From Ferruginibacter sp. (GTDB lineage Bacteria; Bacteroidota; Bacteroidia; Chitinophagales; Chitinophagaceae): DNA of 64,000 bases. The notes beneath the pieces were generated by a model. The model made no database searches, was not told where the DNA came from, and saw nothing but the letters and a program-made list of their open reading frames with translations. The stretch spans positions 15,573-79,572 of the forward strand of contig JBDSIB010000073.1 in assembly GCA_039918155.1 (NCBI GenBank). Direction: 5' to 3'. Below, piece by piece: positions 8,865-12,630 of this stretch (within the stretch, counting starts at the first letter, position 1; each line of letters opens with the position of its first letter). A program made the position numbers and the translations under genes.

Positions 8865-9656
8865 TCATTTTGAAGAGTGATTCTCTATATTTTGATGAAG
8901 TTTATCAAAATAATCAACGGCTTTCAATAGACGACTTCCGTACCAACTGAACATTTCTCCATCTACCAATATAATTTTCACCTTGGGTAAATACGCCTTT
9001 AATTCATCTACATGCTTTTGTGTAAATGGAAAAGGCTCTGAAGAAAGAAAAAGGTAATTACACCCTGAATTTCGGATATCCGCTATGGTTATCTCGGGAT
9101 AACGCTTGCTTTCTTGATAAATGTTTTTATAACCGGCATGCAAAAGCATATTGCTTATAAAAGTATCGCCGCCAATGGTCATGTAAGGGTTTTGCCATAT
9201 AAGATAAATTACTTTTTTAAAAGGCTCAATAAATTGCAGGGATGCAAATTTTTGTTGAATATCTGTTATAAGATCGGTGGCTTTAGTAGTTTTCCCTGTC
9301 AGCATTCCAATATCATTAATCATATTGAGTGCATCCTGCAAATTTTTTACATCAGTAACCCATACATTTAATTCTTCTGCCAATGTTTCTACCTGCTGCT
9401 TTACATTTTCTTCTTTATTGGCTAAGATAAGGGTAGGAGAAAGGCTTTTTATTTTTTCAAGATCCAGCATTTTTGTACCGCCAATTCGTGTCTTTGTATC
9501 AAGCCATTGTTTGGGGTGAATGCAGAATTTTGTAATACCGATAGTTTCTTCTTCTAAACCAAAATAGTAAAGTAGGTCTGTTTGAGATGGAACGAGGGAA
9601 ATAATTCGGTTTGCACCTGCAGTAAATGCACGTGTGTCTGTTAGAAGCATCCTCAA
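8865..9656 (-). CDS. helical-backbone metal receptor (BtuF-like substrate-binding protein)
   Basis: RIISLVPSQT, GITKFCIHP, IGGTK, NKEEN, LSSEPFPF, DGEMFSWYGSR. Confidence 0.88.
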   Translation of the reverse strand: MRMLLTDTRAFTAGANRIISLVPSQTDLLYYFGLEEETIGITKFCIHPKQWLDTKTRIGGTKMLDLEKIKSLSPTLILANKEENVKQQVETLAEELNVWVTDVKNLQDALNMINDIGMLTGKTTKATDLITDIQQKFASLQFIEPFKKVIYLIWQNPYMTIGGDTFISNMLLHAGYKNIYQESKRYPEITIADIRNSGCNYLFLSSEPFPFTQKHVDELKAYLPKVKIILVDGEMFSWYGSRLLKAVDYFDKLHQNIENHSSK

Positions 9657-9676: not shown

Positions 9677-9723
9677 AAAAAAAACTTCCACAGGAATTTG
9701 CAAAAGCAAATAGTCTGGGGAAG
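9677..9723 (-). terminator. intrinsic terminator of ncRNA copy 1
   Basis: minus strand CTTCCCCAGACTATTTGC-TTTT-GCAAATTCCTGTGGAAG followed by 8 T. Confidence 0.65.
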
Positions 9724-10150
9724 CTAAATTTTGACCAACTTTAAAAAAGTTGTTGGTTTCTCAGGAGATTTTTACTTTTCAGACGGGGGTCGTATAGTAA
9801 AAAATGATTTGTCCTGGTTTCAGTTTGGTTTTTCGCCATCATCGCTGTGGTTAGCAGCATAGGCTGGATAATTGGTTTGGTTGGTTTTTTAAAGGACTTT
9901 AGATTCTGGTTTTGCTATCATCGCTTTTTACAGCATAAGCATTAGGTATTGGTTCTTTTTCGATTCTTCGGTTGGTTATTCTGGATTTTAAAACGTATGC
10001 TTTATTCAAAAAAAAAGGAGAAGTTGACTGATATTGAATTTTAATGGCTTTTCTTCTTTCGAGTTTTTGGATATTGGAAAACTCAGTGTTTGGCTTTATC
10101 AGGATTCTTTGGATAATGATTGATACTTAATCGCTATCAATCAACTTCTG
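9677..10150 (-). ncRNA. putative large structured ncRNA, copy 1 (about 470 nt), family not recognised
   Basis: No credible ORF; paralogous to 10547..11038; promoter at the right end, terminator at the left end, conserved helices. Confidence 0.65.
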
Positions 10151-10153
10151 AGA

Positions 10154-10184
10154 CAAAGATGCAACACTAACAGTTCTTTAACAA
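10154..10184 (-). promoter_or_regulatory. promoter of ncRNA copy 1
   Basis: minus strand TTG (10184-10182), 20-nt spacer, CATCTTTG (10161-10154; one mismatch to TAnnTTTG); same arrangement in copy 2. Confidence 0.55.
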
Positions 10185-10546
10185 GAGCGTTATTGCTCTT
10201 TTTTTGGGATGAAGTTATTACTGCTTCTAATAGTACATAAACTCAAATAACGGGGGAACTATACCTATCTTACTATCGTAAAAATACGTTCTTTAAGTTT
10301 TAAAATAATTATTAAAATGTCCTGTATATCAATGCTATAGAACATCTCAGCTCATTTTTTAATTATAAGGCATTAGTAGAAAACTATTTTGCTTGCAAGA
10401 AATATGCTGAGTACGGTTTTTCTATTGTGTAAAAATAGTACCATTCTTTTAAAGGCAACTATTCCTACAACCTTAGCTGATCTGTAATTAGATAGAAGAA
10501 TTATGTAAGATTTTCAATTGGGAAAGATGAGCTCGTAGAGCATATC

Positions 10547-10579
10547 AAAAAAAAACTTCCATACTAAAAAGTATGGAAG
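10547..10579 (-). terminator. intrinsic terminator of ncRNA copy 2
   Basis: perfect 10-bp stem CTTCCATACT-TTTT-AGTATGGAAG followed by 9 T on the minus strand. Confidence 0.8.
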
Positions 10580-11038
10580 CCTAATTTGTTAAACCAACTT
10601 TTTTGCTTGTTGGTTTTTCAGGATGGTTTACTTTTCTGAGGGGGCTCATTATAGTAAAATATCTTTATCCTGGTTTCAGTTTGGTTTCGCCTCGCTCTTC
10701 GCTTTGGCTTAGGATATTGGTTATTAGTTTTTTTAAGGCCGGGGACAACTTTTTTTCAGCTCGGATATTGGTTCGATTTGGCTTTCTACAGGAATTAGAT
10801 TGTAGTTTTGCTATCGCTTTTTAGAGCGTAAGCATTGGATATTGGTTTTTGGTCGGTTCTTCTATTAGATATTCTGGATCTTAAAACGTATGCTTAATTT
10901 TAAAAAGTAGAAGTTGACTGATATTGAATTTTAATGGCTTTTCTTCTTTCGAGTTTTTGGATATTGGAAAACTTAGTTTGGCTTTATCAGGATTCTTTGG
11001 ATAATGATTGATACTTAATCGCTATCAATCAACTTCTG
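10547..11038 (-). ncRNA. putative large structured ncRNA, copy 2 (about 490 nt), family not recognised
   Basis: Paralogue of 9677..10150 with a near-identical 130-nt block (10909-11039 vs 10019-10151); four exact CCAATATCC motifs. Confidence 0.65.
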
Positions 11039-11041
11039 ACA

Positions 11042-11072
11042 CAAAGATGCGGCGCTGACAGTTGCGTAACAA
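11042..11072 (-). promoter_or_regulatory. promoter of ncRNA copy 2
   Basis: minus strand TTG (11072-11070), 20-nt spacer, CATCTTTG (11049-11042); elements conserved while the spacer diverges from copy 1. Confidence 0.55.
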
Positions 11073-11202
11073 GAGCGATATTGCGCTTTTTTCGGGGTGA
11101 AGTTATTACGGAGCTCTCCGTAAATGATACACAAAACAGGAAGGGCTACTACTAAAAGTGATTTAGTAAAAATACTATTTATGAAGAAGACGAATCTAAA
11201 AT

Positions 11203-11274: not shown

Positions 11275-12630
11275 TTATTTTGAAAGGCTTTGTATAATGT
11301 CATATTTAGTAACAATATGATACATTCCACTTTCATCCTTACTAAGCACAGCTCCATTTTCACGGGTAATAAACTGGCTTAATCGTTCTACCGGAGTATC
11401 AAATCCTACTTCGGGGTAGGCCTTTTCCATTACATTTTTTACCAACTCAGACTTTACATCTGCGTTATCCAGTATCTTATCAAAAAGGCCGTTTTCAGAA
11501 ATAGCGCCGAGGTTCTCTTCGCCATTTAGCACAGGTATATTTTCTATATCGTACTTCTTCATCAAAGTGATGGCTTCCATTACAGTTTGCTCCGGTTTAA
11601 CCGCAATGATCTTCTGCGAACCACGGCCGCTCACAAGGTCTCCAAAAGTTTTTACATCTAAAAATCCTCTTTCTAGCATCCATTCGTCATTGTACACTTT
11701 TCCTACATACCTGCTACCATGATCATGAAATATCAATACAACTACATCGTCTTTTTTAAGCTTACTTTTTAATTGCAGCATTCCCTGTAAACAACTGCCC
11801 GCACTGTACCCACAAAACAATCCTTCCTCTTTGGCAATACGTCTTGCCATGACGGCCCCATCTTTATCAGTCACTTTTGTAAACTCATCTATCAAACTCA
11901 TGTCATAATTGGCAGGTACAAAGTCTTCTCCAAAGCCTTCACTAATATATGGGTAAACCTCTTTTTGATCCAATTCACCCGTCTCAAAATATTTTTTAAG
12001 TAAGGAGCCATAACTATCTATTGCCCATACTTTAATTTCAGGATTTTTTTCTTTTAAATACTGTGCTGTGCCTATAATTGTACCACCTGTACCGGTAGCT
12101 ACAACAAGGTGAGTCACCTTGCCTTCTGTCTGTTCCCAAATTTCAGGACCTGTCTGCTCATAATGTGCCTGGCGGTTTGCAAGATTATCATATTGATTTA
12201 CGTACCATGAGTTAGGAACTTCAGTTGCCAATCTTTTTGAAACAGAATAATACGAACGGGGATCCTCCGGTTCTACGTTTGTTGGACAAACAATTACTTC
12301 AGCACCTACAGCTTTTAAAATATCCGCCTTTTCTTTAGATTGTTTATCAGTAGTGGTAAAAATACATTTGTAGCCTTTTACACATGCTGCCAGGGCTAAA
12401 CCCATACCGGTGTTTCCACTGGTTCCTTCTATAATGGTTCCCCCGGGCTTTAGTTTGCCTTCTTTTTCTGCAACCTCCAGCATTTTTAAAGCCATCCTGT
12501 CTTTAATAGAATTACCGGGGTTAAAATATTCTACTTTAGCCAAAACGGTACATGGGAGCTCCTTCGTTATCTTATTTAATTTTATAAGAGGCGTATTACC
12601 AATTGTTTCCAAAATATTATTTAACCACAT
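11275..12630 (-). CDS. cystathionine beta-synthase (PLP-dependent CysK/CBS family with C-terminal CBS domains)
   Basis: IGNTPL, NPGNSIKDR (PLP Lys), EGTSGNTG, GTGGT; C-terminal CBS pair. Confidence 0.92.
   Translation of the reverse strand: MWLNNILETIGNTPLIKLNKITKELPCTVLAKVEYFNPGNSIKDRMALKMLEVAEKEGKLKPGGTIIEGTSGNTGMGLALAACVKGYKCIFTTTDKQSKEKADILKAVGAEVIVCPTNVEPEDPRSYYSVSKRLATEVPNSWYVNQYDNLANRQAHYEQTGPEIWEQTEGKVTHLVVATGTGGTIIGTAQYLKEKNPEIKVWAIDSYGSLLKKYFETGELDQKEVYPYISEGFGEDFVPANYDMSLIDEFTKVTDKDGAVMARRIAKEEGLFCGYSAGSCLQGMLQLKSKLKKDDVVVLIFHDHGSRYVGKVYNDEWMLERGFLDVKTFGDLVSGRGSQKIIAVKPEQTVMEAITLMKKYDIENIPVLNGEENLGAISENGLFDKILDNADVKSELVKNVMEKAYPEVGFDTPVERLSQFITRENGAVLSKDESGMYHIVTKYDIIQSLSK

Follow-up and report, generated by a model that had tools for sequence, protein, structure and literature searches.

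A multicopy family of large RNAs in Chitinophagaceae with serial predicted pairing sites for a FopS-like small RNA

Two tandem RNA units and the family to which they belong

The window that we analysed is the whole of a 64,000-nucleotide stretch of a Ferruginibacter sp. genome. Two homologous units lie in a gap between open reading frames, 3' of a gene for a PALP and CBS domain protein and 5' of a PF01497 gene, both on the minus strand. The features of the locus are as follows (window positions).

11275..12630, minus strand: upstream neighbour, PALP and CBS domain protein, cystathionine beta-synthase-like; marks the home locus of the family
11042..11109, minus strand: promoter of the right unit, with GTAAT box (11109), A-tract, GAGCAA..GCTC palindrome running into TTG (11086-11070) and CATCTTTG -7 element (11049-11042)
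10547..11037, minus strand: right RNA unit, ~490 nt, 11 predicted sites for the FopS-like small RNA (sRNA)
10909..11037, minus strand: 5' domain of the right unit, 15-bp helix (11037-11023 with 10923-10909), alternative local hairpin, three predicted sRNA sites
10854..10888, minus strand: strongest predicted site of the right unit, pairing with nearly the whole 30-nt seed (duplex of -29.1 kcal/mol)
10810..10833, minus strand: degenerate copy of the inserted hairpin module in the right unit, assigned from sequence and module statistics
10619..10672, minus strand: CAGGA/UCCUG helix of the 3' domain, right unit
10544..10582, minus strand: intrinsic terminator of the right unit, hairpin (10582-10553) and T-run
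10154..10221, minus strand: promoter of the left unit, same elements as in the right-unit promoter
9677..10149, minus strand: left RNA unit, ~473 nt, 9 predicted sRNA sites
10019..10149, minus strand: 5' domain of the left unit, 15-bp helix (10149-10135 with 10033-10019)
9914..9940, minus strand: hairpin module GCUUAUGC..GCGAUGAUAGC inside a predicted decoy site, left unit
9835..9864, minus strand: second hairpin module of the left unit, between AUCC and GAAAAACC half-sites
9762..9816, minus strand: CAGGA/UCCUG helix of the 3' domain, left unit
9677..9724, minus strand: intrinsic terminator of the left unit, read from sequence and folds
8865..9656, minus strand: downstream neighbour, periplasmic binding protein (PF01497)

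A preliminary description of this DNA had proposed two homologous tandem units on the minus strand, each with a predicted promoter and terminator, and our analysis agrees, placing them at 11037-10547 and 10149-9677. The right and left copies share 60/72 aligned bases in the promoter, 128/129 in the 5' domain and 223/321 in the 3' part. The near identity of the first ~130 nt that had been noticed is thus confirmed, as is the disregard of indels for a reading frame, with alignment gaps of 39, 1, 4, 2, 3, 3, 1 and 14. Both units are more stably folded than their shuffles (z-scores of -4.3 and -2.7), and a 73-amino-acid ORF that overlaps the right unit on the plus strand shows no conservation among homologues. 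A single sequencing run, presumed to be of RNA, covered 9765-9971 with a 207-nt contig that has 4 differences, along with another piece of 34 nt; we place no weight on it. An apparent plus-strand terminator at 10183-10200 is the promoter palindrome together with the A-tract.

A covariance model of the 5' domain matched 52 of 150 Chitinophagaceae genomes, spread over 47 of the 135 genera sampled and with 1–7 matches per genome; outside this family, none of 136 genomes of the order and none of 140 in a phylum sample contained a match. BLAST located copies in 30 of 36 genomes of the same genus and in 0 of 24 genomes of other families. By pattern scan, we estimate ~1,000 stored stretches, and among the 80 matches listed all came from Chitinophagaceae genera or unassigned Bacteroidota bins. 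Hanamia caeni, Ginsengibacter hankyongi and Paraflavitalea pollutisoli are among the named isolates that gave matches. Viral contigs gave 0 matches to the family, and the named records closest to the units are Ferruginibacter genomes. Five copies are present in the genome studied here. We collected 188 distinct units, comprising 129 with a called terminator, 36 without one within 900 nt and 23 that are truncated, with a unit length of ~240–650 nt (5th–95th percentile). The order of CBS gene, RNA and binding-protein gene constitutes the home locus: the CBS gene lies upstream of 70 of the 188 units and the binding-protein gene downstream of 61, and 14 genomes without a family match have no comparable unit upstream of the binding-protein gene. 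Downstream genes vary and are on the strand of the unit in 102 of 135 cases. We also observed tandem arrays, with five copies at L130:1501-3182 and four at L056, where each inspected copy has its own promoter. Three units without a nearby terminator (L055, L058 and L068) carry a conserved short ORF (MQLL.E.R...DFSTW) 3' of the 5' domain.

The units had been judged unlike tmRNA, RNase P, 6S and SRP, and a search of the window units against Rfam covariance models bears this out: it gave weak terminator matches only, the best at E 0.48, with no match to large RNAs (tmRNA, RNase P, 6S, SRP, OLE, GOLLD, ROOL and others), and 12 further loci gave only a tRNA. A conserved, translated small ORF, which the preliminary description had named as evidence that would count against it, was sought among homologues and none was conserved; ORFs are no longer than in shuffled sequence and the peptides fall in mixed frames. 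Its candidate, a large minus-strand non-coding RNA new to the literature, is supported by a family in 47 of 135 genera that has neither an Rfam match nor a conserved ORF, and by compensatory changes in a hairpin module and the terminator. We found no description of this large RNA in a literature that was largely open-access. The main texts of PMC11109978 and bioRxiv 2026.09.15.751765 do not mention Chitinophagaceae, and the RNA may be listed in the supplements of these two papers or of PMC8632094.

Unpaired repeats and predicted pairing with a small RNA

The 5' domain is indeed closed by a helix, which is 15 bp long rather than the 9 bp first proposed and which overlaps, and competes with, an alternative local hairpin. 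Across 57 homologues, 99.1% of the cells of this helix are paired, a frequency that is circular because the units were detected through the helix itself; some units lack it. One-sided changes in the helix all gain or lose a G-U pair, and this identifies the strand as minus; two-sided changes number zero. A clear partner for the closing-helix strand elsewhere in this genome was looked for, and none was seen. Five other proposed helices (ctgata/tatcag, gagtttt/aaaact, aagcat/atgctt, tttact/agtaaa and accaac/gttggt) are lineage-specific, being present in 18, 1, 4, 8 and 11 of 129 units, respectively. The cagga/tcctg helix is also lineage-specific, at 39 of the 129 terminator-called units, and it stands as a helix, paired in 19/19 distinct aligned segments and almost invariant.

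Compensatory changes occur in the terminator and in a hairpin module that is paired in 89/89 instances, 22 and 17 of which show U-A in place of C-G; the internal loop of this module is conserved, and its loop sizes of 6, 7 and 10 nt break the reading frame. We ruled out a K-turn by eye, as there is no A at position 1n. Of the covariation called for at the outset, compensatory changes are seen in the module and the terminator, and two-sided change is absent from the closing helix. The earlier inference that selection acts on RNA structure covers only part of the picture: length varies from ~240 to ~650 nt, the closing helix is missing from some units, and what is conserved at the core is unpaired sequence with complementarity to a second RNA. 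This common core consists of repeats, with a median of 11 DUCC and 7 RACC motifs per RNA at spacings of mostly 6–11 nt. The cytosines of the motifs are mostly unpaired (0.68 versus 0.45; 80 of the 129 units folded), and the conserved feature of the family is a run of unpaired repeats of the form AUCCAAUAUCC...GAAAAACC. The large RNA is not a compactly folded RNA.

We scanned non-coding DNA for the repeat's complement and obtained 22 matches, of which 7 belong to a single type of element of ~62 nt that is composed of a promoter, GGUUUUUCAUAGGAUAUUGGAUUUUAAAAC and a terminator. These are seven copies of a gene for a FopS-like small RNA, all outside the window (contig, position and strand: C14:6041-, C15:2699-, C30:68784-, C40:4632+, C70:78561-, C70:78363- and C153:19957+). 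The same anatomy, multicopy with its own promoter, a single-stranded 5' seed and a terminator, was found in 20/20 small-RNA loci that we fetched. The 21-nt seed is present in 101 of 150 genomes of the family with 0 control matches; it occurs in 52/52 genomes that carry the large RNA (median of 4 copies) versus 49/98 others (median of 1), and in five genomes (L035, L080, L102, L096 and G102) it lies no more than 300 nt from a large-RNA copy.

FopS is described in PMC11697453 as a set of 14 paralogues with a single-stranded 5' seed and a terminator that block translation near start codons. Compared with the FopS-10 and GibS T7 primers in the supplement of that paper, whose letters stand in for the R1 bounds themselves, the seed has 11 identical bases (GTTTTTCATAG), a 2-nt insertion and then 7 of 8 bases alike (TATT(A/G)GAT). 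Four small-RNA loci gave no real match in Rfam, to FopS or to any other model, although a FopS model may be absent from the library, and a widened seed pattern, itself 2 nt too long to match FopS, picked up nothing beyond the family among 140 genomes of the phylum. PMC11697453 names RbpB as the antagonist of FopS, and the word 'sponge' appears 0 times in its main text; RbpB, an RRM protein reported in PMC12119571 to prefer GUAGGAUA, that is, the side of the small RNA, is described as functionally sponge-like in PMC12205990.

In complement, the seed gives AUCCAAUAUCC upstream, linked to UAUGAAAAACC, which spells a start codon and the codons for MK. The right unit has 11 sites and the left unit 9 at a cut-off of -9 kcal/mol or lower, with best duplexes of -29.1 and -22.7 kcal/mol. 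In 45 of the 129 units, drawn at random, we counted 7.2 sites per RNA at or below -13 kcal/mol, against 2.2 in dinucleotide-shuffled targets, 0.8 in the antisense and 1.4 with a shuffled seed, a complementarity of which the GGAUAUUGG part is circular because the seed was found through the repeat consensus. The GAAAAACC-like half-site was not used in the search, and it follows 206 of 1,480 DUCC motifs against 17–34 in shuffled flanks. With folding included, 120-nt tiles of the window units reached -17.3 and -16.6 versus -9.3 and -10.1 when shuffled. Spacers between half-sites form AUG in 20 of 192 cases and restore the exact start-codon site in 2 of 192, and in 48 of 94 cases the two half-sites flank the hairpin module. 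In a test for wobble pairing, substitution frequencies in 344 sites were 0.09–0.12 for A-to-G and 0.08–0.12 for U-to-C. Of the features by which bacterial sRNA sponges are judged, we find seed complementarity above chance as well as co-occurrence with the small RNA, the latter among carriers that share ancestry.

Promoter, regulator genes and secretion cargo

Family promoters have a GTAAT box near -70, an A-tract, a GAGCAA..GCTC palindrome near -42 that abuts TTG, and then the -7 element; TTG and -7 elements were read against what we take to be the promoter consensus of the phylum. Conservation is free of gaps in a set of 28 promoters and also in one of 181, in which the -7 element is TAnnTTTG in 103 and CAnnTTTG in 68. 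The palindrome is likely to be an activator site. A position weight matrix of the promoter hit six sites in this genome, five at family copies and a sixth that precedes a gene for a secreted PKD protein, the leader of which is a degenerate family copy. At this last locus (L377; C44:6182-8387), family promoter and degenerate copy make up a 520-nt leader of a 537-amino-acid secreted PKD-domain protein. One promoter match in another bacterial family proved to be the rpmB promoter and was taken as chance.

By following the promoter matches, we came upon a gene cluster for NarL-type regulators and HisKA_3 kinases. RR_A, a NarL-type response regulator, is present in 52/52 carriers versus 8/98 other genomes; this co-occurrence is not independent because the carriers are largely one clade, and an unrelated 86-amino-acid protein likewise tracks them (45/52 versus 9/98, counted by hand). 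A family copy is divergent from RR_A, at 227–299 bp, in 29 of 52 carriers, from RR_B in 17 of 43 and from either in 35 of 52; the genome studied here has no copy beside the cluster. The family promoter also heads an operon that encodes a short peptide or a 122–130-amino-acid protein, a membrane protein, a kinase and RR_C, an arrangement that looks like peptide quorum sensing. Look-alikes of the 125-amino-acid operon protein were only nameless Bacteroidota proteins. The clusters (L364:3725-8334, on C70 of this genome, and L365-L372) combine NarL-type regulators, three to four in number, with HisKA_3 kinases and membrane proteins, and in some genomes they are headed by a 16–20-amino-acid peptide or by a 122–130-amino-acid protein with a variable, Trp-rich tail.

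RR_A was predicted as a target of the small RNA on the first 5 loci (-17 to -22 in 4 of 5), and the prediction was then tested on 40 newly fetched loci, of which 8 without a called start were dropped (3 carriers and 5 non-carriers). Start regions at or below -14 were found in 26 of 29 scored carriers and 0 of 3 scored non-carriers. The background was 5% among 600 genes taken at random and 7% among 827 whose products begin with MK. The RR_A site is weak in this genome (-11.5; RR_B reaches -15.0) and in the one other genome of the genus that was scored (-9.1). Because the carriers are related, p-values across genomes are overstated. Start regions of SusC-like genes, a set taken from our own profile, were not enriched (6/28 at or below -12, p=0.27).

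We next considered the 41 type IX secretion cargo genes of this genome, defined by our own gene calls and profile. A matrix built from the RNAs of other genomes matched 7 of 36 cargo leaders versus 36 of 2,057 matched genes, and duplexes reached -14 in 9 of 41 cargo genes versus 92 of 2,035 cytoplasmic ones. A doublet of the motif is 4.2-fold enriched over shuffles in the cargo leaders of this genome; across genomes, its enrichment is 3.0-fold in 60 leaders from 5 carriers versus 1.3-fold in 59 leaders from 5 non-carriers. Normalised to shuffled seeds, cargo start regions of carriers and of seedless non-carriers (60 versus 40) did not differ (p=0.68; raw p=0.01), and cargo is for this reason the weaker part of the model. 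The window itself contains a cargo gene (PF18962; 16520-17761), the leader of which is missing the repeat motif.

Proposed mechanism and alternative readings

Given the anatomy of the family, a complementarity that exceeds its controls, the co-occurrence with the small RNA and the linkage to the NarL-type two-component cluster, we think it likely that the units are paralogous multi-site sponges that bind and neutralise the multicopy FopS-like small RNA. Like FopS, this small RNA would repress translation by pairing over start codons (UAUGAAAAA and the upstream AUCCAAUAUCC). Each repeat would serve as a decoy for a start region, one that cannot be translated because its AUG is lost or a hairpin has been inserted, and the closing helix may protect the 5' end. 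RR_A or its paralogues would activate the shared promoter at the palindrome near -42. Because strong pairing with the small RNA is predicted for the RR_A start region too, induction of the sponge would raise RR_A in a positive feedback, and would also free a subset of type IX cargo mRNAs. The best reading of the sequences is thus probably a regulator-induced multi-site sRNA sponge within a positive feedback loop, with type IX cargo as further targets. Tentative, and to be doubted rather than assumed, is a full quorum-sensing circuit in which a Trp-tailed peptide would signal through the membrane protein and kinase to the NarL regulators and on to decoy RNAs with up to a dozen fake start codons each; these would sponge the FopS-like small RNA and release regulator and cargo, making a bistable exoprotein switch.

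Several known systems are comparable. In Staphylococcus agr/RNAIII, a single promoter type serves an operon for peptide, kinase and regulator as well as an effector RNA of ~500 nt with links to exoproteins. Here too, one promoter type heads both such an operon and RNA units of ~500 nt; the differences are the NarL-type regulators, HisKA_3 kinases and separate membrane protein, and that any effect of the RNA on mRNAs would be mediated by a small RNA instead of being direct. CsrB/CsrC and RsmY/RsmZ are multicopy, repeat-rich mimics of leaders driven almost alone by a NarL-type regulator (BarA-UvrY/GacS-GacA). Judged by sequence, our family resembles CsrB/RsmZ in being multicopy, repeat-rich, leader-mimicking and linked to a NarL/UvrY-type regulator, and differs in that its repeats are UCC/ACC instead of GGA, CsrA was not found and the predicted ligand is RNA. 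The eukaryotic microRNA sponges and target mimics ciRS-7 and IPS1 likewise present numerous seed sites that bulge where it matters most, a likeness of logic only, as our family is bacterial and linear and has no Argonaute. Known bacterial sRNA sponges, of which SroC, RosA and QrrX are reportedly further examples, are short or processed and are not known to carry more than one or two sites, whereas this family is a dedicated 240–650-nt multicopy gene with ~7–11 predicted decoy sites. The large RNA is a new RNA family; the sRNA sponge is a kind already known, and pairing with the seed of another small RNA, predicted here, is a feature of AgvB and 3'ETS-leuZ as reported in PMC12205990. The partner small RNA matches FopS/GibS of Bacteroides thetaiotaomicron, as described in PMC11697453, in being multicopy, in its single-stranded 5' seed, in its terminator and in shared seed letters; it differs by the 2-nt insertion and a family-specific extension of the seed, and by predicted targets that are a response regulator and secretion cargo, not SusC. 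According to PMC12119571, Hfq is missing from the lineage.

A sponge in the manner of CsrB/RsmZ, titrating a protein with affinity for AUCC/AACC leader motifs, with the sRNA complementarity arising from shared mRNA sites, was our first reading and now seems unlikely. It would account for many short unpaired repeats at distances of 6–8 nt, for multicopy genes under a UvrY-like regulator, for a repeat motif that recurs in cargo leaders and for sRNA sites that are imperfect, with A-to-G no commoner than U-to-C in the 344 sites. We moved away from it because CsrA was not found in this genome (88.9% complete) and the protein candidates failed. The repeated GGA of CsrB/RsmZ is not seen (GGAH at 0.72 versus DUCC at 2.74 per 100 nt in family RNAs), no candidate binding partner for the repeats held up in a genome with one RRM gene and two cold-shock genes, pairing extends up to 30 nt with flanks on both sides included, and the GUAGGAUA preference of RbpB (PMC12119571) points to the side of the small RNA. 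More improbable still is a stable complex of large and small RNA with a function of its own, such as storage, scaffold or a carrier with the RRM protein. The invariant closing and CAGGA/UCCUG helices, the conserved internal loop of the hairpin module and the single RRM protein would suit such a complex; site number and length vary widely, however, the closing helix is missing from some units, and a regulated promoter with target-like sites suits titration.

Action in cis, with the units serving as leaders or attenuators of downstream genes, is very improbable for the family as a whole and may hold for a subclass only. At L050, L053, L075, L360 and L077, promoter and 5' domain lack a clear terminator and precede the peptide-7TM-kinase-regulator operon, a cargo gene at C44 is headed likewise, and 102/135 downstream genes share the strand of the unit; against this stand tandem arrays of up to 5 terminated copies (L130), a right window unit with no gene behind it and the variety of downstream genes. 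Least probable of all, and disfavoured, is a non-autonomous mobile repeat or a gene for small peptides (a multi-core precursor). Multiple scattered copies and a 15-bp inverted repeat recall the former, and a hairpin module readable as AYAVKSDDG the latter, but the home locus is stable across genera with 0 viral-contig matches, ORFs are no longer than shuffles with peptides in mixed frames, and the reading frame is lost across module loops of 6, 7 and 10 nt, with 89/89 stems still paired.

If true, the sponge reading would provide a bacterial counterpart of multi-site microRNA sponges in the form of a dedicated large RNA of tandem decoy start codons. It would extend FopS-like regulation far past gut Bacteroides, with an antagonist and a conserved target named, and would link it, in bacteria that are common in soil and fresh water, to a gene cluster for two-component and peptide signalling. 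Each step of the model makes a prediction at the level of sequence that compensatory mutations can test.

The 86-amino-acid protein that tracks the carriers (L376:1258-1518, L380-L409) is conserved, with five strands and two helices and no known family. We had guessed at it as a partner from its strand pattern, and rejected it as it lacks a leader motif, has no counterpart in Pfam or PDB and matched no fold at E ≤0.001. A TAGCA-N-TTGC element upstream of its gene resembles a sigma-54 promoter, going by what we take to be the sigma-54 consensus. Intergenic regions of this genome (C6, C51, C81, C84 and C138) contain runs of 8–9-nt tandem repeats, ATCCTAAATC, TTGAACCT and ATGAACCA, that adjoin genes.
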